The notes under the pieces: generated by a model
What the model was told of the DNA's origin: nothing
The model's database searches: none
Seen by the model: the letters and a program-made list of their open reading frames with translations, nothing else
Translations under genes and position numbers: made by a program
Shown here: in pieces, positions 4,505-37,105 of the stretch
How positions within the stretch are numbered: the stretch's first letter is position 1
Layout: each line of letters starts with the position of its first letter
Assembly (NCBI GenBank): GCA_022824545.1
Contig: JAJDZR010000117.1
Coordinates: 1 to 51,661, forward strand
Direction: 5' to 3'
DNA: 51,661 nucleotides
From: Chloroflexota bacterium
GTDB taxonomy: Bacteria; Chloroflexota; UBA11872; UBA12225; JAJDUF01

Positions 4505-4588
4505 CCCCTTCCCTTCAGGGAGGGGGTTTGGGGGTAGGTCCGCCCTCCACCCCTCTCCAAATGTTGGAGAGGGGGCCGGGGGGTGAGG
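4505..4588 (+). repeat. Repeat cluster (families B and A)
   Basis: CCCCTTCCCTTCAGGGAGGGGG plus G tail, then CCCCTCTCCAAATGTTGGAGAGGGGG plus tail. Confidence 0.8.
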
Positions 4589-14022: not shown

Positions 14023-14122
14023 CGGATGAGTTCCGGCATTGCCCTCGGCGAGCGATTCAGCGCGGCGACTTGCGGCCCCTTCCCTTCAGGGAGGGGGTTG
14101 GGGGTAGGTACGCTCCGGCCCT

Positions 14123-26256: not shown

Positions 26257-27588
26257 TCAGTCGTCCGTGGCGAACTTCCAGGGGCTTGGCTGCGCCTCGC
26301 TGTAGTGGATCGCGGCGTAGTACAGGCCGTGAACGTCCTTCTCCCCCGGCGTGACCGCCAGACCGGTATGGCCGGGGTCGTTCATGCTCTGGTGGACGAT
26401 CCGGTGGGCAATGAGCTGTACGCAGCCTCCTGCGTGTGGCAGCAGCTTGGCCATATCGTGTCGCCACCACCAGCCGGGGGACTTGCCGGCTGTAGCCGGC
26501 CCGTCCGGCGGTGCCGGTAGCCCGGCCTTGACGCTGTCGTAGACCTCCCGCCGGTTGGTGGCGGCGAAGCCGCGCTCCGGGTCAATGTCCCAGAGGTACA
26601 GCGGGTTGCGAGGGTTGTCATACGGTGAGGCCTGCCAATCTCCTCCAAGTAGACGCAGCACGCCGTCGGCACAGGTATACGCCGTCAGCGGCGCGTGGTT
26701 GTCCGGGGCAGCGTACTGCACCGCCGGCAGCGGACCGAAGGGGTCGTCCGCGCGTATCCAGGCCACCTCGCCGCCCGTGCGCGCGCTGATGATCCACTCG
26801 TCTCGGTACCGCGCCAGGCTCGCCTCCGACAGGTGATCTCCGACGAGCGGGCCGGTTTCGACCCATTCGTAGATGCCGCGCTGCGGACTGTAGCGGTACT
26901 TCAGGGCCGCCAGCCGTCCACTGAAGTGGTTGACATCGGCCCATTCGCTCGCATCATCGTTGAACGGCACTGCCTGCACCATGCTCTGATTCATCCAGCG
27001 CACGGCGGCGCTACAGAAGGCTGCACCCTCCTCATACCCGCGTTGGCGCAGCTGCTGGACCGGCTGGACGATCTCAATGTCGTCCTCGGCATCATTCAAG
27101 CGGAACTGCACCCACTCGACGCCCAGCGTGCGCGCGGTGAGCTCGGGGTGTTCTCGCGCCGAGCGCAGGAACCCGGTTGCCGGGTCAACAATCCGCATCG
27201 TGCGATACCACTTGACGACAAAGAGATTGGCGTGCGGTACCGGCTGCCCGCGGATCAGCGCCCCCTTGGGCACCCCGAACCCGGCGACGTGGCTCTGCTG
27301 GCGCACATACGCACTGCCATCGTTGAAAGGGTCCCAATCGTTGCGCGTGCGAACCAGCCGGCCCTCGCTGAGAACCGGGCCGTCGAAACCTCCGTCGCGG
27401 ACTTGATAGATGATGCTGCGCGCATCATCCACGCCGCGATAGCCGCGCGTAGCGAACAACAGCACAAACCGCCGCGCACTGACCTGGATGCCGTTCGGAT
27501 GTCCCGGGTACACGTCGTCGGCGCGGGTGTCGCCGGGTTGCGAGCATTCGTGAACCAGACTACCGCGGTGTTCGATACGTTCGATCAT
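26257..27588 (-). CDS. Hypothetical protein, paralogue 1 (possible beta-propeller)
   Basis: Colinear with 27734-29056 along its whole length (HPNGIQVSARRF, GVEWVQFRLN, EASLARYR, DMAKLLPH). Confidence 0.8.
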   Translation of the reverse strand: MIERIEHRGSLVHECSQPGDTRADDVYPGHPNGIQVSARRFVLLFATRGYRGVDDARSIIYQVRDGGFDGPVLSEGRLVRTRNDWDPFNDGSAYVRQQSHVAGFGVPKGALIRGQPVPHANLFVVKWYRTMRIVDPATGFLRSAREHPELTARTLGVEWVQFRLNDAEDDIEIVQPVQQLRQRGYEEGAAFCSAAVRWMNQSMVQAVPFNDDASEWADVNHFSGRLAALKYRYSPQRGIYEWVETGPLVGDHLSEASLARYRDEWIISARTGGEVAWIRADDPFGPLPAVQYAAPDNHAPLTAYTCADGVLRLLGGDWQASPYDNPRNPLYLWDIDPERGFAATNRREVYDSVKAGLPAPPDGPATAGKSPGWWWRHDMAKLLPHAGGCVQLIAHRIVHQSMNDPGHTGLAVTPGEKDVHGLYYAAIHYSEAQPSPWKFATDD

Positions 27589-27644
27589 GGCCGTTGCCCC
27601 AAGTACCTCACTGACTCCCATTCCCTACGAGAGAAGGGGCCGGG

Positions 27645-27733: not shown

Positions 27734-29056
27734 TCAGGTCGCAAACTGCCAGACGCCAGGGTAGGACTCCGCGTACTGCACCGTGGCGTAGTAGATGCCG
27801 CCCGTCTCTTTCTCCGTCGGCGTGATGACGGCCCCCCTATGGCTGGGATCGTTGTTCATGCCGCTCCGTACCCGGTAGACGATGATCTGCTCCCTACCTC
27901 CGGCGTGCGGCAGGAGCTTGGCCATGTCGCAGGTCGGGCGGCTCTCCACCGGAATCGGCAGCCCGGCGGCAACGATGTCGAATACCGTGCGCCGCTGAGC
28001 CGCCGCAAAGCCGTTGTCGGGGTCAATGTCCCACAGGTAGAGCGGATTGCGGTTGAGGCCATACGGTGAGATCGTGCTGTCTCCCGTCAGCACGCGGAGC
28101 ACGCCGTCGGTGTAGGTGTAGGCGGTCAGCGGCGACGAGTTCACCGGCGACGCGGGACGCGCCGCCGGCGGCACGGCGCCGAACGGGTCCGCGGTGCGAA
28201 ACCAGCCTATCGAGCCACCGCCGCGCGGCCGGCCGCTGATGACCCAGCTACCCCGATAGCGAGCGAGGCTGGCCTCGGAAAGCTGCTCCTCAATCAGCGG
28301 CCCCGTTTCCACCCATTCATACACGCCGCGCTCCGGGTTATAGCGGTACTTCAAGGCGGCCAGCCGGCCGCCGTCGAAGTGGTTTACGTCGGCCCATTCG
28401 CTGGCATCCTCGTTGAACGGAACCGCTTGCACGAACGACTGATTCATCTGACGGACCGGCGCTGTACCGGCGGCGGCGCTACAGAAGGCGTCGCCCTCTT
28501 CATAGCCGCGTTGCCGGAGCGGTTGGGCCGGCTGGACGATCTCCATGTCGTCCTCGGCCTCGTTCAAGCGGAACTGTACCCACTCGACGCCCTGGGTGCG
28601 CGCGCTCAGGTCGGGGTGGGAGCGCGAAGCTACCAGGAAGCCGGTGGCCGGGTCAATGACGCGGGCGCAGACGCGCCACTTGACGACGAATAGATTAGCG
28701 TTGGGCGCCGGCCGTCCCCGGATCAGAGCGCCGCGCGGCACACCGAACGCCACCGGATGCCCGTGCTGTCGCACATACGCGCTGCCGTCGTCGAACGGGT
28801 CCCAATCATTGACGGACTTGGCCAGCATCCCTTCCGCCAGCAGCGGGCCGTCATAGGCCCCGTCGCGTAACTGGTAGACGATGCTCAGGTCGTCATCGCC
28901 GCCGCGATAGGTGCGCGTGGCGTACACGAGCAGGAAGCGCCGCGCGCTGACCTGGATGCCGTTCGGATGCGCGGGAAACACGTCATCGGCGCGAGTCTCT
29001 CCGGGCAGGCCACATTCGTGGATCAGCTTACCGCGATACTCGATCTGTTCGATCAT
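27734..29056 (-). CDS. Hypothetical protein, paralogue 2 (possible beta-propeller)
   Basis: 440-aa ORF with GAGG RBS, tandem duplicate of the downstream gene. Confidence 0.8.
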   Translation of the reverse strand: MIEQIEYRGKLIHECGLPGETRADDVFPAHPNGIQVSARRFLLVYATRTYRGGDDDLSIVYQLRDGAYDGPLLAEGMLAKSVNDWDPFDDGSAYVRQHGHPVAFGVPRGALIRGRPAPNANLFVVKWRVCARVIDPATGFLVASRSHPDLSARTQGVEWVQFRLNEAEDDMEIVQPAQPLRQRGYEEGDAFCSAAAGTAPVRQMNQSFVQAVPFNEDASEWADVNHFDGGRLAALKYRYNPERGVYEWVETGPLIEEQLSEASLARYRGSWVISGRPRGGGSIGWFRTADPFGAVPPAARPASPVNSSPLTAYTYTDGVLRVLTGDSTISPYGLNRNPLYLWDIDPDNGFAAAQRRTVFDIVAAGLPIPVESRPTCDMAKLLPHAGGREQIIVYRVRSGMNNDPSHRGAVITPTEKETGGIYYATVQYAESYPGVWQFAT

Positions 29057-29511: not shown

Positions 29512-30891
29512 TTAGGCGGTCACGCTATGGGCGATAGCCCCGGCCACAACTGTACACCGTACAGCGCTGGCGCGGACGCCGGTGCAAAGCTGCTTCGCAA
29601 TGTCGGTATCGCCGGGGTGTGGCAGGGCTACCACCGCGAGATCGGCATATTTGCCGACCGTGATGCTGCCCAGCTCCTGCTCAAGACCGAGCGCCTGCGC
29701 GCCCTCGATAGTCAGCCAGCGCAGGACGCGGTCCGCCGCGCGTGGATCGAAGGATGCACCGGCTTGCCGCTGCCACAAGGCGTAGGCCGCGGCGGCCTCG
29801 GCAAACAGGTCCAGGCTTTCGTTGCTCGCCAGGCTGTCCGTCCCCAATCCGAGCCGCACGTCCTGCTCGACGAGCCTCTGAATCGGCGCCTCCCCGCAGC
29901 CCAGCATTGCATTGCTCCGGGGACACAACGCGACGGTCACGCCTCGCGCCGCCAAGCGTGCGATCTCCTCGTCGTCAAAGTGGACCCCATGAGCGACGAC
30001 CGCCGGCCGCCGAAGCGACAAGCCCTCGAACAGGCCACAGCGGTCGGCCAGCAGCGCCGGACCGGTGCCGCAGCCTCCCGCCTCGATGAGGTCGTGTCCG
30101 CCTTTCGTTGCCAAGCCCTCGGCCAGCGATCCCTGCCCGGAGCGCGAAAACTCTACCTCTTCGACGGTTTCGGCCAAGTGGATCGTGAGCGGGAGTTTGC
30201 GGGCCTGAGCCAGATCGCCCAGTCGTTCGAGCGCCACTGTGGACAGCGTGTAGATGGTGTGCGGACCGAGTCCCACGCGCAGTCGCTGCGCCCCGGCCGC
30301 CAGCCGCACGCTCCGGTCCAGTTTCGTCGTTAGTTCGGCCAGTTGCTCGTCCAAGCGCACGCGCTCGCGCATCCCCACCGCCTCGATATAACTGATCCCG
30401 GCGAGGTTGTGCGTCCGGGCGGCCGCCAGCCCCGGCCCGAACGTCACGATGTCACCGACGCAGGTTGTCCCGGCCGCGACCAACTGCCGTACGCCGGCGT
30501 TGGCCGACGCCGGCCAAAAGTCCGCTGGCGCCTGGTGACTGCGCCGAATGAGAGCCGGTATCCACTCCCAGAAGGGCTGCCGTTCCGATAGGGGGCCGAA
30601 GTTCGTGTATTCCAGGTGTGTATGAAGGTTGACGAGACCGGGCAGCATGGCGGCGCCGTCGTAGTGCCGGTGTACGGTGTTGGAGGGCGTCTCGATGGAC
30701 CGCCGCGGTCCTACCGCCCGGATCCGCTCCCCGACAATCAGGACGGCGCCATCTCGGATCGGTGGCTCCGTGATGGGCAGCACCCAATCGGCCGTCAGCA
30801 AGAGCGGCGGCCGGTCGCCACCATGACTCCCCTTCCCTGAAGGGAAGGGGCCGGGGGTTAGGTCCGCCCCGCCACTAGCTTCTAGACTCAA
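29512..30891 (-). CDS. Amidohydrolase, probable aminodeoxyfutalosine deaminase
   Basis: PGLVNLHTHLE, GPHTIY, IHLAE, AHGV, CPRSN, GTDSLASN. Substrate inferred from the mqn context. Confidence 0.8.
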   Translation of the reverse strand: MSLEASGGADLTPGPFPSGKGSHGGDRPPLLLTADWVLPITEPPIRDGAVLIVGERIRAVGPRRSIETPSNTVHRHYDGAAMLPGLVNLHTHLEYTNFGPLSERQPFWEWIPALIRRSHQAPADFWPASANAGVRQLVAAGTTCVGDIVTFGPGLAAARTHNLAGISYIEAVGMRERVRLDEQLAELTTKLDRSVRLAAGAQRLRVGLGPHTIYTLSTVALERLGDLAQARKLPLTIHLAETVEEVEFSRSGQGSLAEGLATKGGHDLIEAGGCGTGPALLADRCGLFEGLSLRRPAVVAHGVHFDDEEIARLAARGVTVALCPRSNAMLGCGEAPIQRLVEQDVRLGLGTDSLASNESLDLFAEAAAAYALWQRQAGASFDPRAADRVLRWLTIEGAQALGLEQELGSITVGKYADLAVVALPHPGDTDIAKQLCTGVRASAVRCTVVAGAIAHSVTA

Positions 30892-31880
30892 AAGGTCTCC
30901 ACCAGGCCGTAGCTTGTGTCGCGCTGTGCCGGTGTCCAGCCGGCAGTACGGATAAGCCGCACAAGCTCATCGCGGGACAACCGCGGCAGCCACTGCCCGG
31001 CCGCGCCGGTGCTGGACGTGTGCGCGGTAGGCGTCGGCGGCTGAATGGTCCCGAGGTCGTCGGCCCCGAAGGACAGACTGAGCTGCGCTACCTCGGCCCC
31101 GACGTGCCCCCACGCGGCGCTGACGTGAGTCGTCGTGTCGAGGCAGAGGCGCAGCACGGCGAGCGTCCGGAGATAGTCGAACGGTGACACCGCACGGTCC
31201 CCGGCCCCCGACGCTGCGATAACGACACACGACCGGTGCGCCGCAGCCGCACCGCGCCGAGGCCGGCGACCGTCTTGCCAATCACGTACTTGCACCAACT
31301 GCGCGGCCCGTTCGGCAACCGTCTCGTGGGCACGCACGACGATAGTCGGGGCTGCATCCAGCCCGAGGTCATACGCCGCGTCCACCACGTCGAGCCAAAC
31401 GGTGCCATCTTGCTGGCTACCGCTATCCTGCACGAGAAAACTCAGACCGGCGTCACGCAGCGCCGCCAGGGCCGCTGCCGTATTCACGTCTCCGGCTGCC
31501 CACCCCGCAGCGTCCACGGCCAAGCCGTAGTGCAGCTGCGGGGTGTGCGCCTTGGCTGCCGCCACAGCGCGAGTCACGGCAGCGAGCGGCGCGGCGCGGA
31601 ACGTGACCTCGCTGCACCCGGCGGCAACCACCGCCGCGAGTTTTTCAGCCAGGTCGGCCTCGCTTCCGAGGTCAGGCACGGCCAGGATATGTCCCAGGGC
31701 GAACGTGACCTGTTCCGTGGGTAGCCGCGCCCGCCGCATCGCCGCGGCGGCTCGCCCCACCGCCAGCAGCGTCTCTCCGTCCGCCAGCAGTGCCGCCGTG
31801 GCCGCGGCGCTCAACCGCTCGCCGGCCACGGTGCGGTCCAGCAGTTCCTGGATGCTTGCCTGTTCTCCGGCGCTCATCAT
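30888..31880 (-). CDS. MqnC/CofH-like protein lacking the radical-SAM CxxxCxxC motif
   Basis: Retains GERLS, QVTF, WLDV, HET..ER, DYLRTLAV.RL, AQLSLSFGADDLG and QRDTSY, but has no Cys triad and no GGGAE motif. Confidence 0.8.
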   Translation of the reverse strand: MMSAGEQASIQELLDRTVAGERLSAAATAALLADGETLLAVGRAAAAMRRARLPTEQVTFALGHILAVPDLGSEADLAEKLAAVVAAGCSEVTFRAAPLAAVTRAVAAAKAHTPQLHYGLAVDAAGWAAGDVNTAAALAALRDAGLSFLVQDSGSQQDGTVWLDVVDAAYDLGLDAAPTIVVRAHETVAERAAQLVQVRDWQDGRRPRRGAAAAHRSCVVIAASGAGDRAVSPFDYLRTLAVLRLCLDTTTHVSAAWGHVGAEVAQLSLSFGADDLGTIQPPTPTAHTSSTGAAGQWLPRLSRDELVRLIRTAGWTPAQRDTSYGLVETF

Positions 31881-32740
31881 CCTGCCTCGTACCGATCAGT
31901 AGGCTGCTCGGCCACCGCCGCGAACTCCAGCGCCGGCACCGCATCGAGCGCCCCCAGCGCCTGCGCGTGCCGCGCATAGGCGTGCAATCCGTCACGATAG
32001 GCGCGGTCGAACGTAAACCGCAAGGTGCGGAAGTACGCCGCCAGCGCCGCCGCCGGGAAAGGCTCCCACTGCGCCGCGTCGGCGGCAATCGCCTCGACGT
32101 TGGTGAGGCTATAGGCCAACGACTGCTGGAAGGCACGGTAGACGACGTTGACGAGTGCCGGCGCTGCGGCGGCGAACGGCCGGCGCACCGCCCAAACTGC
32201 GTAGACCATCGGATGTCCGGTCAGCGCTTTCCACTCCGTCCCCAGATCGTAGATATGCAGGCCGGCCGGCGGTTGCATGTGTACCCGCAGCGCCGGGTCT
32301 CCGATCAGTAGGGCGGCGTCCGCTTCGTCCAACATCCGGCCCAGATCGGGAGGACAGTCAAAGTAGGCCGGATGGGCCGCGTAGCGGTTGGCGAGCAGGA
32401 TTTGGGTGAGCACGTGCGACGTAGCGGAGGTGTTGGTCAACGCCACGGTCCGCCCGTCGAGCGCGGCGGCCGGCACTTTGCTGACCAGGACGATGCTCTT
32501 CACGGCGCCGTCCGAGCTGACCGTCAGGTCCGGCATGAGCAGCAGCTCGTCGGCGTGCCGCAGGTACTCGATGGAGGAGATCGGCGAAACGTCGAGCTGC
32601 CCGCCGATGAGCAGGCGATTCAGCTCGGTCGGCGTGCCTTTATGCAGCTCGATGTCGAGCAGCGCGTCGTGCCGCACCAGCCCGTGGTACAGCGGCAGGC
32701 AGTTGAGGTACTGGATATGCCCGACCCGCGGCCGGTTCAT
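31877..32740 (-). CDS. mqnA: Chorismate dehydratase (futalosine pathway)
   Basis: IQYLNCLP, PTELN, ISSIEY, SATS, LLIGD.AL, DLG.EW..LTG.PMVYAVW. Confidence 0.93.
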   Translation of the reverse strand: MNRPRVGHIQYLNCLPLYHGLVRHDALLDIELHKGTPTELNRLLIGGQLDVSPISSIEYLRHADELLLMPDLTVSSDGAVKSIVLVSKVPAAALDGRTVALTNTSATSHVLTQILLANRYAAHPAYFDCPPDLGRMLDEADAALLIGDPALRVHMQPPAGLHIYDLGTEWKALTGHPMVYAVWAVRRPFAAAAPALVNVVYRAFQQSLAYSLTNVEAIAADAAQWEPFPAAALAAYFRTLRFTFDRAYRDGLHAYARHAQALGALDAVPALEFAAVAEQPTDRYEAG

Positions 32741-32819
32741 AGCGCCCGCCTAGCCACGCCCAACGGCGCCTCGGCCTGGTGTCCGAACATGATGTGCGTG
32801 GGGAAGGAGCGTCGGAGCA

Positions 32820-34049
32820 TCAATTGTCGTAGATTTGCACGACGTTGTAGACCGTATCGCGCTGCACCGGGATGCGGCCCGCCTGGCGGATGCGCCGTAG
32901 CAGGTCGTCCTGGGAGACTTCGTGCGGTGTCTCGGCGCCGGCCATGTGGTAGATGCGCTCCTCCACGACGGTACCGTCGAGGTCGTCCACGCCGAAGTGG
33001 AGCGACAGCTGCGCCAACGGCAGCCCCAGCATGATCCAATAGGCCTTCATATGGTCGAAGTTGTCGAGCAGCAGCCGACTGACCGTAAACACCTTGAGGC
33101 TCTCATACGGTGTTGCCATCGGCAGGTGCGACATCAGATTGTGCTCGTTGTGGAACCGCAGCGGGATGAAGACCTGGAAGCCGCCCGTCTCGTCCTGCAA
33201 GTCCCGCAGCCGCAACACGTGGTCAATCCGCTCCTCGGGCGTTTCGATGTGCCCATAGAGCATCGTCGAGTTGGTACGCAGACCCATGCCGTGTGCAATG
33301 CGATGGATTTCCAGCCAATCCTCGGCGGTGGACTTATAGCCGCAGATGCGCCGGCGCACGCGCGGAGCGAATATCTCGGCGCCGCCGCCCGGCAACGAGC
33401 CGAGTCCCGCCTCGACGCACTGCCGCAGCACCTCCTCATAGGACAGGCCGGTGATCCGCGCAAACCACCAGATTTCGACGGCCGTAAACGCCTTCAGGTG
33501 TACGTCCGGCAGGGCCGCTTGCAGCCGGCGCAGCGCCTCCAGGTAGTAATCGAAGTCCAGCTCGGGGTGCAGCCCATTGACGATGTGTAGCTCGGTGATC
33601 CCCTTCGGCGCGGCCGAGACGGCCGTGCTCACGATCTCGTCGTGGGTCATCGTATAGCCGCCCTCCTTGCCAACGCTGCGTCGGAAGGAGCAGAAGTGGC
33701 AATATGCCTTGCAGATATTCGTCAGGTTGATGTGGCGGTTGATATTGAAGTAGACGTGATCGCCCGACTTCCGGCGCTGGACAAAGCGGGCCAGCTGCCC
33801 CAGCCACGGGAGGTCGTCACAGGCGTAGAGTGCCAGCCCGTCCTCGGCCGACAGCCGCTCGCCGGCATGTACCTTGCGTTCGATGTCTCCCAGCGTGGCT
33901 GCGCTAGGCTTAGGCAGCGACGTTTCCGGTGCTTGCAGCCCGACCAACCCGGTTGGATTGACTAACCCGGTCGCCCGCCGCGGCCCGGGGCCTCGGCGCC
34001 GCTTGGCCCGGCGCGGTGGAGCCGTGATGGTGGGTGCCGTTGTTGCCAT
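32820..34049 (-). CDS. mqnE: Aminofutalosine synthase (radical SAM)
   Basis: NRHINLTNICKAYCHFC, ELHIV.GLHP, KAFTAVE, PGGGAEIF, TMLYGHIE, HMKAYW, DDLDGTVVEERIYH.AG, with an AGGAGG RBS. Confidence 0.93.
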   Translation of the reverse strand: MATTAPTITAPPRRAKRRRGPGPRRATGLVNPTGLVGLQAPETSLPKPSAATLGDIERKVHAGERLSAEDGLALYACDDLPWLGQLARFVQRRKSGDHVYFNINRHINLTNICKAYCHFCSFRRSVGKEGGYTMTHDEIVSTAVSAAPKGITELHIVNGLHPELDFDYYLEALRRLQAALPDVHLKAFTAVEIWWFARITGLSYEEVLRQCVEAGLGSLPGGGAEIFAPRVRRRICGYKSTAEDWLEIHRIAHGMGLRTNSTMLYGHIETPEERIDHVLRLRDLQDETGGFQVFIPLRFHNEHNLMSHLPMATPYESLKVFTVSRLLLDNFDHMKAYWIMLGLPLAQLSLHFGVDDLDGTVVEERIYHMAGAETPHEVSQDDLLRRIRQAGRIPVQRDTVYNVVQIYDN

Positions 34050-34271
34050 CGAGCGTCATCCTCCTGCGGCACGTTGCGGCCCGGCGCGCCTGCCCTGCTG
34101 GCGTCGGGCGAGGGGCGGTACACGCATCCGCACTCCGAGTATAGTAGACCATCTCCCTGCTGCACAGTGCCGGCCGCGCTTGAAACGGCTGATGCCCTGA
34201 GAACTGCATCGGCTACACTTTGCCGGTGGGACATGGCGCCGGGGCGCGCTCGTGAGGTAGACTGGACAGCC

Positions 34272-35751
34272 ATGAAGCGTCAAGCGGTATTGGTCGTCTT
34301 CTTTTTGGCGCTTTTCCTCGCCGCCTGTGACCTCCCCTTGGGGATCGGCTCGACTGCCGAACCGACGGCAACCGCTCCTGCGCCACCGCCACCGCCACCC
34401 ACGCGGGCAGCGCCAGCGCCGACGGCCACGCAGCCACCGCCACCGGCAGCCCCGACCGTGCCCCCGACCGCGGTAGTCACCGTTGTCTCTTCGTTTCCTA
34501 CCTCAACGCCGGTCTCCTCCAGCGCGGTGGCCACGGCGGTAGCCAGGGCCAAGGCCGCGGCTACGGGTACGGCGCTGGCGAGGGCCGGAGCAGCGCCCAC
34601 GACTACGCCCGCGACACCCGTGACCACGGCGGATGTCATCTATGTCGGCAATACCGGCGGCATTGGCGTCTTTCTACGCAGGACGCCCCAGGCTGCGGAT
34701 CGGCTGAAGGCGTACCCGGACAACACGCGCCTCGCCGTCATCGGCCCCGACGTAGGTGCCGAGGGTCGTATCTGGCGGCACGTGCGTGCCCCCGACGGGG
34801 TAGAGGGCTATGTGCCGGCCCAGTACACGTCGGGGCAGCCGGTTCCCACGGTCACGCCGGCGCCAACCCCACAGACTGCCGCAGCGACGCCCACCCCTGC
34901 CCCGGCCACGCCGACGACGTACCGCGATGCCACGGTTACCAACGTTGTGAACGGTGAGTTGGTGGAGGTGTCGCTGCCGAGTGGGGCCACGCGCGTGCGG
35001 CTGATCGGTATTGACGCGCCGGAGGTCGTTGGCCCCGGTGAGCCATTCCAGTGTTATGGCGCCGAGGCCACCAGTCGTGCCGGCGAGCTACTTGCCGGTC
35101 AGCCGGTGCGCTTGGAAGTGGACGCGAGCCAAGGGGAGCGCGATGCCGCCGGGAATCTGCTCGCCTACGTGTGGCTGCTGGACGGTAGCATGTACAACGC
35201 CCGGATGATTGCGGAAGGCTTCGCCCTCGAACGGTCCGGCGCCGCGGCCTACCGCTGGCAGGGGCAGTTCCAGGCCGCCGAGTTGCAGGCGCGTAGCCAG
35301 CAGTTGGGCCTCTGGCATCCCGGTAGCTGCACCGGGGAGGTCCCGACACCGACGCCGGTCGCGCCGCCACCAACCCCGACGCCTCCCCCGGCCCCGACTC
35401 TGGCGGTCTCTCCGCTGACCTTGTCACCGGAACAGCGAGCAGCGCCGGTAGAGGCGATCAAGCAGCAACCGGAAGTCCGCGATGCGGTTGTCAACCAAGG
35501 TGAAGGGCGACGCTTGAGCTTGGTAGTGACCGTGACCCCCGGCACAAGCGAGACGCGCGGACGAGAGCTTGGTGTCAGCTTTATACGGCTGGTCAAGGAT
35601 ATCGGGCCGGATGACGCCCCCCCCGCCCAATGGTATTGGGGCCGGCCGCCATACGTACTTGATACGGGTGCTTGACAGTGATGGGAAGCTTGTTGCCTTG
35701 GGGGAGAAGAGGTGGGATCGGCCGGACATGACCTGGGTCCGCGTGGGCTGA
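34272..35751 (+). CDS. Lipoprotein with SH3-like and thermonuclease (SNase) domains, frameshifted at a C8 tract
   Basis: Lipobox LAAC, Pro/Thr linkers, SH3b-like GVFLR...WRHVRAPDGVEGYVP, SNase VRLIGIDAPE...LAYVW. The current frame stops at 35675, while the +1 frame continues to 35751. Confidence 0.75.
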
Positions 35752-36043: not shown

Positions 36044-37105
36044 ATGAGTTGGCGTTCTGCCGCCCTGGGACTTGCCATCAGCGCCATCGCCATCTGGCTG
36101 ACGCTACGCAGCGTCAACCCCGATGAAGTGTGGCAGGCATTTCTGGCCGCGAACCTCTGGCTGTTCCTGCCGACGCTGCTGCTCCACCTGCTCAACATCT
36201 TCCTGCGCTCCTGGCGCTGGAAGCTGCTCTTCCTCCCCCAAGACCGGGTCCGCCTGCCCCAAGCCTACGCGGCGACGCACCTGAGCTATCTGTTCAGTTC
36301 GTTCTTGCCGGGACGCTTGGGTGAGTTGATCCGCGGCTTCTTGGTCGTAGAGAGCGAGGCGGTGAGTCCGGGGCGCGCGTTAGGGACGATTTTCGTCGAG
36401 AAGCTGTTGGATATTGCGATGCTCCTCTTGCTGCTCGCCGGCCTCCTCGGTCTCAGTAGCTGGCGCGATTGGTCGCACGCCACCGGTACGCCACTGCCGG
36501 GCTGGGCGGATGCCAACGCCGTTGCGATCCCGGCTTGGGCGCAGGCCGCCGGCGTCACGGCACTCATCATCTTCGGGGCCATCACCGTGGCTTTCATCGT
36601 CATGAGTTGGGCACGCCAGCGGGCCGTGGCCGTGATACGACGGTGGGTGGACCCCTTGCCCTTGCTAGGACGACTGCATCCGTCGCACCTCGTGCAGACG
36701 GCGCTTGGCTCCGCCGATGGCCTGTCTCGACCACCCCTCCTCGCGGCAGTGCTGCTGCTCTCGGTGGTGATGTGGGTGGGCGGCGGCCTCACATTGGCTG
36801 TTGCCGTGTATGCCTACCACCTACCGGTACCGCTCAGTGCGGCATTTCTCCTATTGGTGGTCACGAATCTGGGTATGACCATCCCCTCCGCGCCAGCGTA
36901 TATCGGGGTGTATCACGCCTTATCGGTAACGACTCTCCTCTTGTTCCCGTCCGTCAGCCGCGATCAGGCCTTGAGCTATGCTGTAGCTGTGCATGCGCTC
37001 GCGTTCGGGGGGGTGAGCCTGACCGGCCTGTTCTTCCTCTGGATCGGACACTACCGCCTCGGTGAGTTGATTCGGCGCAGCCGGGCACGTATGCGTATGT
37101 CGTAG
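36044..37105 (+). CDS. Lysylphosphatidylglycerol synthase TM / UPF0104 flippase-like protein
   Basis: LRSWRWKLL, LPGRLGELIR, EKLLD, PSAPAYIGVYH. Confidence 0.88.
   Translation: MSWRSAALGLAISAIAIWLTLRSVNPDEVWQAFLAANLWLFLPTLLLHLLNIFLRSWRWKLLFLPQDRVRLPQAYAATHLSYLFSSFLPGRLGELIRGFLVVESEAVSPGRALGTIFVEKLLDIAMLLLLLAGLLGLSSWRDWSHATGTPLPGWADANAVAIPAWAQAAGVTALIIFGAITVAFIVMSWARQRAVAVIRRWVDPLPLLGRLHPSHLVQTALGSADGLSRPPLLAAVLLLSVVMWVGGGLTLAVAVYAYHLPVPLSAAFLLLVVTNLGMTIPSAPAYIGVYHALSVTTLLLFPSVSRDQALSYAVAVHALAFGGVSLTGLFFLWIGHYRLGELIRRSRARMRMS

Follow-up and report, generated by a model that had tools for sequence, protein, structure and literature searches.

The iron-sulfur cluster is the defining feature of radical S-adenosylmethionine (SAM) enzymes, and there are hardly any descriptions of conserved homologues that lack it. 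Two radical SAM enzymes act in futalosine-route menaquinone synthesis, a pathway of interest for drugs against Helicobacter and Chlamydia: the aminofutalosine synthase MqnE, which binds a cluster and SAM, and the cyclase MqnC, which acts on dehypoxanthine futalosine. The passages of PMC3914697 that we consulted treat MqnC as a single family and do not mention a cluster-less form, and we found no description of a cluster-less MqnC or MqnE in the literature searched, which left subscription journals mostly outside. Here we analyze a 51,661-nucleotide stretch of DNA from a Chloroflexota bacterium (contig JAJDZR010000117.1 of assembly GCA_022824545.1, hereafter the window), which corresponds to contig C218 among the 340 contigs of a 4.09-Mb assembly with 94.7% completeness. 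Within its futalosine operon, whose minus-strand order mqnE-mqnA-X-amidohydrolase was borne out by the open reading frames (ORFs) and their family scores, gene X (30888-31880, minus strand; 330 aa) encodes an MqnC-derived barrel that is a radical-SAM-derived, cluster-less paralogue.

The only Pfam match of X was PF19288 (CofH_C), at 43.4 bits over residues 229-326 (gathering score 27), and the radical SAM domain PF04055 gave no match in X at E <= 0.01. On the MqnC model TIGR03699, X scored 87.5 bits across residues 156-326 only (cut-off 428.1), and on the MqnE model TIGR03700 it scored 77.2 bits in the C-terminal half only (cut-off 434.55). When X was aligned with MqnC and MqnE sequences (alignments A1 and A4), the alignable span ran from the N-terminal helices through the C-terminal ELVRLIR..G..P.QRDT.Y motif. 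By alignment and translation, about 22 residues bearing the CX3CX2C motif are absent after strand 1 (VTF) at FALGHILAVPDLG (31665-31703, minus strand), and LSFLVQDSGSQ (31413-31445, minus strand) stands where MqnC has the SAM-binding LDSIPGGGAE. MqnC positions G207-E211 are not kept, and Q144, G145 and G146 are replaced or deleted. Across 50 MqnC sequences, 97 positions reach a conservation of 95% or more, and X keeps 41 of them (11/46 in the N-terminal part and 30/51 in the C-terminal part); gone are the cysteine loop, QGG, GGGAE, K225 and EENV. The cysteines of X stand at 89, 218 and 246 only and form no C...C..C pattern. Because the [4Fe-4S] loop and the SAM-binding motifs are lost, X, judged by its sequence, cannot bind a cluster or SAM in the known way, nor make a 5'-deoxyadenosyl radical. 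The first-pass annotation of the window had described family motifs at both ends of X, a missing CX3CX2C loop, a replaced GGGAE, three remaining cysteines and an apparently dead catalyst; our alignments agree with it on each of these sequence features, and X cannot be a canonical radical SAM enzyme.

A confident AlphaFold 2 (AF2) model of X (predicted local distance difference test 86.1, predicted template-modelling (TM) score 0.87) showed an eight-stranded barrel, with helices between the strands and a small sheet at the C-terminal end. Its best match among solved structures was MqnE (6xig, TM 0.77; 6xi9_A, Z 29.1, root-mean-square deviation 3.8 over 310 residues), which was also the only sequence match of X in the PDB (E 1.6e-16). 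HydE, ThiH, BioB, HydG and PylB followed at Z 20-22, and generic barrels came after these at Z ~12-14. As modelled, the fold of X is whole and its cofactor sites are not. X is a member of the CofH_C-bearing lineage by descent and stands outside MqnC, MqnE and the radical SAM superfamily by their defining features.

To place X among its relatives, we surveyed 41 genomes, including the window's own, from its genus (uncultured Chloroflexota metagenome-assembled genomes) and from families f2 to f6 of its order and class. A full-length match to X was present throughout the genus (9/9) and in none of the f2 (0/14), f3 (0/1), f4 (0/9), f5 (0/3) or f6 (0/5) genomes. All nine genomes of the genus share the gene order of the window together with an ATGA in which the stop codon of mqnA overlaps the start codon of X (31877-31880, minus strand, as the first-pass annotation had read the letters), and in all nine X is free of stops, with every indel in frame. 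A search of 5.8 billion proteins returned 31 clusters at 69-100% identity and full coverage, carrying PF19288 only, and three fragments; the next matches were canonical MqnC at 24-38% identity. The 31 clusters have 96 invariant columns in common and many loop indels, and the CX3CX2C loop is absent from every one of them; C89 and C218 are invariant (31/31), and position 246 is C or F.

We then compared selection across the operon. Pairwise dN/dS (NG86, 36 pairs) had a median of 0.35 for X (range 0.23-0.56), against 0.07 for mqnE, 0.11 for mqnA and 0.27 for the amidohydrolase gene, and the corresponding maximum-likelihood omega values (GY+F3X4; mean dS 0.26-0.32 for all four genes) were 0.295, 0.042, 0.064 and 0.194. 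For X, omega = 1 was rejected (2dlnL = 201), a codon bootstrap placed dN/dS at 0.29-0.44, and the N- and C-terminal halves gave 0.39 and 0.32. X is clearly constrained over its whole length, yet five to seven times less than mqnE and mqnA; across the genus it is 73-83% identical, against 95-99.5% for MqnE. The traits of a pseudoenzyme come together in X: lost catalytic residues, a fold predicted to be kept and purifying selection. The earlier view that X is uninterrupted and under selection is upheld by the open frame in nine of nine genomes and by the omega of 0.295, and the gene overlaps that had been offered in its favor are a weaker argument, the ATGA being inherited and the TTGA at the other end of X doubtful (see below).

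The missing loop does not stem from the assembly. The same gap occurs in eight other genomes of the genus, six of which are a single chromosome record, and in 30 further protein clusters, and a contig from an independent metagenome run spans X with no insertion at the loop site. An assembly error was accordingly rejected. Nor did any relative point to a recent pseudogene, the loop being absent in 31/31 family members and omega far from 1. Two deeper relatives extend the family. One, a partial protein 59% identical to X, has the locus tag CL878_04760, next in number to the tag CL878_04765 of an MqnA 84% identical to that of the window (P0034, P0269). The other, P0121, is 44% identical to X and groups with it at 100 support; P0121 and a 76% identical MqnA both lie on 9412-base contigs, which only hints at a common contig. 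The P0121 locus itself was found neither in genome contigs (the best match, at 44%, came from the genus of X) nor in metagenome contigs (77 loci, none close).

The genome of the window has a pathway that does not need X as a cyclase. A canonical MqnC is encoded on contig C57 (459.8 bits, over the 428.1 cut-off), convergent with a second PF02621 gene (232 bits) that is a candidate for MqnD, and an MqnB-like gene lies on contig C246 (124.6 bits against a cut-off of 124.7, or 125.1 with its neighbours in frame). Our genome search thus turned up candidates for mqnC, mqnB and mqnD, all on other contigs; as the first-pass annotation had remarked, mqnB and mqnD are not in the window. Within the window, mqnE (32820-34049, minus strand; 409 aa) scored 515.3 bits on TIGR03700 (cut-off 434.55), with PF04055, PF19288 and the CX3CX2C motif present. 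The mqnA-type gene of the chorismate dehydratase family (31877-32740, minus strand; 287 aa) matched PF02621 at 251.8 bits, and source records name close homologues of its product chorismate dehydratase. The amidohydrolase (nominally 29512-30891, minus strand; 459 aa; PF01979, 163 bits) is a probable aminofutalosine deaminase: it scored 136 bits on the PRK08418 'aminofutalosine deaminase family' model, under the cut-off of 320, and its best solved relative is DR_0824 (2imr, E 8.6e-37), which we take to be one of the characterised aminofutalosine deaminases. Once this amidohydrolase is counted, candidate genes cover all the known steps that lead from chorismate to 1,4-dihydroxy-6-naphthoate. The first-pass annotation had offered a pathway branching at futalosine as one explanation of X; such a branch is not called for, because canonical MqnC, the MqnD candidate, the MqnB-like gene and the DR_0824-like amidohydrolase leave no known step without a candidate, and we rejected it.

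Where X may have come from is illustrated by f5 and f6, which are sister families within the class. Four of four loci there read mqnE-mqnA-mqnC, with an mqnD-type gene next in two and a 4-bp mqnA/mqnC overlap in two; two of the four operon MqnC proteins were scored and exceeded the cut-off, at 436 and 437 bits. Each of the eight f5/f6 genomes searched gave two CofH-family matches, and genomes of the window's genus gave three or four, counting X. In f2, which belongs to the same order, the operon stops after mqnA in the one locus with clearly readable downstream DNA (L033), and the stand-alone MqnC of one f2 genome is 68% identical to that of the window's genus, with which it pairs as sister (support 100). 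In the quick trees used here, with branch support from SH-aLRT, X falls on the MqnC side rather than with MqnE, and its stem measures 2.0-3.7 changes per site. On sequence grounds, X descends from an MqnC-type radical SAM cyclase, and because a true mqnC fills its slot in the sister families, X is probably the original operon mqnC, disarmed, an argument from positional orthology. In the simplest history, the ancestor of the order had both an operon mqnC and a stand-alone one, f2 dropped the operon copy, and the window's genus kept it without its cluster. A stand-alone mqnC may instead have been duplicated into the operon, since the trees do not settle which sequence is sister to X.

Cluster-less relatives were also found outside Chloroflexota. 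An X-family profile searched against 1.84 billion representatives matched 1416 proteins at E <= 0.001; among 147 newly listed matches, 73 lack CX3CX2C, 26 of them aligning across the loop position and 47 falling short of it. Eight of the cluster-less examples were scanned, and NCBIfam has no dedicated family for any of these eight. The majority of the 26 belong together in a family of ~300 residues (about 312-328 aa) from Acidobacteriaceae, which we call Y. A seven-member Y alignment led to 562 confirmed relatives in a species-genome collection, and the best 80 of these 562 loci divide into 66 with the motif and 14 without it, the 14 being free of stops. These cluster-less genes (L094:6001-6954, L046:6001-6954, L038:6001-6951 and 11 further loci) occupy the resident mqnC locus, in the slot upstream of a CelA-like glycosyltransferase gene that holds a canonical 348-aa MqnC in other Acidobacteriaceae. 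Y is one clade (support 97) inside Acidobacteriaceae MqnC (99-100), and because it is nested there, its cluster was lost independently of the loss in X. Independent loss has occurred in at least two phyla.

Family Y keeps 61/97 conserved MqnC positions, and the motifs it lost are those lost from X (the cysteine loop, QGG, GGGAE and EENV). Fifteen pairs of Y genes had dN/dS values of 0.05-0.17, and a further 6 had values of 0.20-0.32; canonical MqnC gave 0.01-0.13 (9/10 pairs, with defined dS). In all five Y genomes inspected, nothing passed the MqnC cut-off: the top match scored 376-381 bits (the one checked is MqnE, at 500.6 bits on its own model), Y scored 262-283 bits, and an extra CX3CX2C protein scored 292-314 bits. 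Five of five genomes with canonical MqnC held only that protein (470-481 bits) and a 379-383-bit match, so that the extra MqnC-like gene with CX3CX2C is present in 5/5 Y genomes and 0/5 canonical-MqnC genomes. In one Tunturiibacter locus (L124:1465-2637 and L124:2694-3818, minus strand, two ORFs), a gene for an N-ethylmaleimide reductase of the Old-Yellow-Enzyme type (NF007899, 395 bits, cut-off 403) is immediately followed by the extra radical SAM gene. Clusters in the ESM Atlas that carry CofH_C only are commonest in Acidobacteriota, an observation that we treat as a lead only.

A third group of cluster-less modules is fused to pathway enzymes. P0133 (906 aa) consists of an MqnE module 54% identical to the window's MqnE, an MqnA domain and then a cysteine-free CofH_C module, which is the gene order of the window operon. 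A search with this third module recovered 16 clusters of the same architecture, P0133 included (887-906 aa; 42-100% identity), all of them (16/16) with a single CX3CX2C and 0-1 cysteines in the last 262 residues, and one 532-aa protein of MqnA and CofH_C; P0133 and P0388-P0403 are the proteins of this family. Profile matches also included the double radical SAM proteins P0122-P0125 and P0128, and P0129, which joins MqnA to two radical SAM modules. As separate observations, P0139 (751 aa) joins a radical SAM module of CofH type to a second, MqnC-like one that lacks the cysteine motif and keeps GGGGE, and the 371-aa Plantactinospora protein P0201 is MqnE-like and cluster-less with GGGAE kept, the missing motif being verified in P0201 alone. 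Four genomes with shorter loci of the P0201 type (L191-L194, Plantactinospora/Micromonospora) have no MqnE over the cut-off, and this case is possibly one of decay of the futalosine pathway.

The reading that we favor, at a little under an even chance for the whole of it, is that X is a disarmed MqnC kept as a non-radical accessory of the early pathway. Cyclisation of dehypoxanthine futalosine would be carried out by the separate canonical MqnC encoded beside the mqnD-type gene on another contig. X is kept under purifying selection, with the predicted fold of a TIM barrel; it would be co-transcribed and translationally coupled with mqnA, and would serve the first pathway steps without radical chemistry, binding MqnA, MqnE or both, or one of their benzoate-type intermediates, by way of the C-terminal half of the barrel, which is the better conserved one. 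It is very probable that X is a protein under selection and does no radical chemistry. The accessory role itself is a reasonable possibility that falls well short of an even chance; it is suggested by the fuller retention of the C-terminal half, a position next to mqnA that is stable across deep divergence, the module order of the fusions and the strong constraint on Y. A wider proposal, which we regard as doubtful, is that cluster-less barrels of the MqnC/MqnE type recur as a non-radical part of the futalosine pathway that has not been described so far: in any lineage with a spare radical SAM copy, one copy would turn into a subunit docking on MqnA and MqnE, with X, Y and the third fusion module as independent realisations of one function. 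Such a docking subunit might hand over or protect labile enolpyruvyl-benzoate or aminofutalosine, or might shield an oxygen-sensitive partner in aerobes.

Several findings weigh against this reading. Constraint on X is relaxed, because its omega is 5-7x that of mqnE and mqnA and its identity across the genus is lower (73-83% against 95-99.5%). The X family is narrow, comprising one genus and two deeper metagenomic relatives. Most MqnC-conserved pocket positions are gone, which speaks against X still binding the substrate of MqnC in the manner of MqnC. The ATGA overlap goes back to the ancestral mqnA-mqnC junction and is not new, and the trees do not put X sister to the operon mqnC of f5/f6, leaving positional orthology unproven. 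Y does not adjoin mqnA, its neighbours being ferrochelatase and glycosyltransferase genes, and the third fusion module, which shares only 34% identity with X across 89 residues, probably represents another independent loss.

The same looseness of constraint would fit a relic in slow decay, without a function of its own: once the stand-alone mqnC took over, the operon copy would have become useless, its frame staying open mainly through the demands of ribosome read-through (polarity and downstream coupling) and the cost of a misfolding product. The omega of 0.295 beside 0.042 and 0.064, the lower identity, the many loop indels and the retention of only 41/97 conserved MqnC positions are what such decay would leave. 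High G+C also makes long open frames cheap, the window containing many spurious ORFs of 100-220 aa, and the cluster-less MqnE-like gene of Plantactinospora, with 4/4 genomes lacking MqnE over the cut-off, may be a parallel. We nonetheless consider decay rather unlikely, whether as a useless copy or as a frame held open by read-through, given that omega = 1 was rejected (2dlnL = 201) with both halves of X constrained, that 96 columns are invariant in 31 clusters, and that the 59% and 44% relatives keep the intact form, implying long survival. Y is moreover as constrained as true MqnC (0.05-0.17 vs 0.01-0.13), and X probably has no translational coupling to the amidohydrolase. An artefact, whether a mis-assembly or a pseudogene of recent date, is refuted and keeps next to no probability, the structure of X recurring without stops in eight other genomes, 30 further clusters and an independent metagenome contig.

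Selection over the whole fold would also suit a new enzyme that performs non-radical catalysis in a remodelled pocket, on an intermediate of the futalosine pathway or on another substrate. TIM barrels change chemistry readily, and D152, R183, E186, H259 and Q280-P281-P282 lie at or near predicted strand ends, are invariant or nearly so in the X family and mostly differ from MqnC. X nevertheless matched no non-radical enzyme family in Pfam or NCBIfam, its structural neighbours past the radical SAM enzymes are generic barrels at Z ~12-14, and the known pathway steps already have candidate genes, and we judge such a change of function unlikely. Radical enzymes with unorthodox cluster sites do exist, ThiC and Dph2 among them, and the invariance of C89 and C218 (31/31) would allow these two cysteines, with another residue or a partner protein, to hold a cluster in X. 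This we consider highly improbable: the third cysteine (246) alternates with Phe; the AF2 model places C89 and C218 at the barrel bottom, on the N-terminal ends of strands 2 and 6; X has lost the SAM motifs QGG and GGGAE; and neither Y nor the fusion modules have a conserved cysteine pattern.

The junction downstream of X deserves separate mention. The letters TTGA do stand at 30888-30891, as the first-pass annotation had reported; as an amidohydrolase start they are doubtful, the ORF being probably over-extended. A repetitive extragenic palindromic (REP)-like 22-base palindrome, CCCCTTCCCTTCAGGGAAGGGG, lies at 30829-30850, just past the X stop and inside the nominal 5' end of the amidohydrolase gene, and in 5/8 other genomes the amidohydrolase ORF begins at residues 28-31, ~100 bp past X. 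Because of this palindrome and these later ORF starts, TTG at 30891 is an unlikely start, and the true one is probably near the TTG at codon 31 (30799-30801). We therefore rejected the TTGA overlap as a sign of coupling between X and the amidohydrolase. With <=2 mismatches allowed, the palindrome matches the genome 72 times in forward and 68 times in reverse orientation (control 0), and its depth is ~100x that of its flanks in 4 sponge or coral metagenome runs; further copies in the window lie at 4505-4526 and 14076-14097. The sequencing runs holding this stretch of DNA are mostly sponge and coral metagenomes, and no RNA run is among the 24 listed. Downstream of the operon, two tandem paralogous ORFs (26257-27621 and 27734-29056, minus strand; 454 and 440 aa) have no Pfam match. 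On the other side, a plus-strand gene (34074-35675; 533 aa) encodes a protein with a staphylococcal-nuclease domain (PF00565) and a long N-terminal part rich in Pro/Ala/Thr, and is followed by a gene for a lysyl-phosphatidylglycerol-synthase-type membrane protein (36044-37105, plus strand; PF03706).

Together, our results suggest a real role for cluster-less copies in menaquinone synthesis, because the losses are independent, Y is constrained like a true enzyme, and such a module is fused to MqnE and MqnA. They also bear on annotation, as similarity-based calls of these genes as 'cyclic dehypoxanthinyl futalosine synthase' would mis-score pathway completeness. Among described families, MqnC (TIGR03699) is the nearest to X: it is the best-scoring family, X falls on its side of the tree, the N-terminal helices and the CofH_C region with ELVRLIR..G..P.QRDT.Y are shared, and a true MqnC fills the slot after mqnA in the sister families. 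X differs from it in scoring 87.5 bits against a cut-off of 428, in lacking CX3CX2C, QGG, GGGAE and EENV, in having changed 56/97 conserved positions, and in sharing its genome with a canonical MqnC. MqnE, encoded two genes upstream of X in the operon, supplies the closest solved structure to the X model (Pedobacter heparinus 6XI9 and 6XIG; 310/330 residues aligned at 23% identity), but MqnE binds a cluster and SAM, and X reaches only 77.2 bits against 434.55 on its model. Family Y shows the same motif loss, purifying selection and a further MqnC-like radical SAM gene alongside, and it sits at the resident mqnC locus; it differs in its independent origin, in being less diverged (61/97 positions kept, against 41/97 for X) and in not lying beside mqnA, and its partner radical SAM gene is divergent and sub-cut-off (292-314 bits), whereas the genome of X has a canonical MqnC. 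The MqnE-MqnA-CofH_C fusions, finally, repeat the order of the operon and end in a cysteine-poor third module (42-73% identity among clusters), but they are one polypeptide, and at ~250 residues that module is a reduced barrel.

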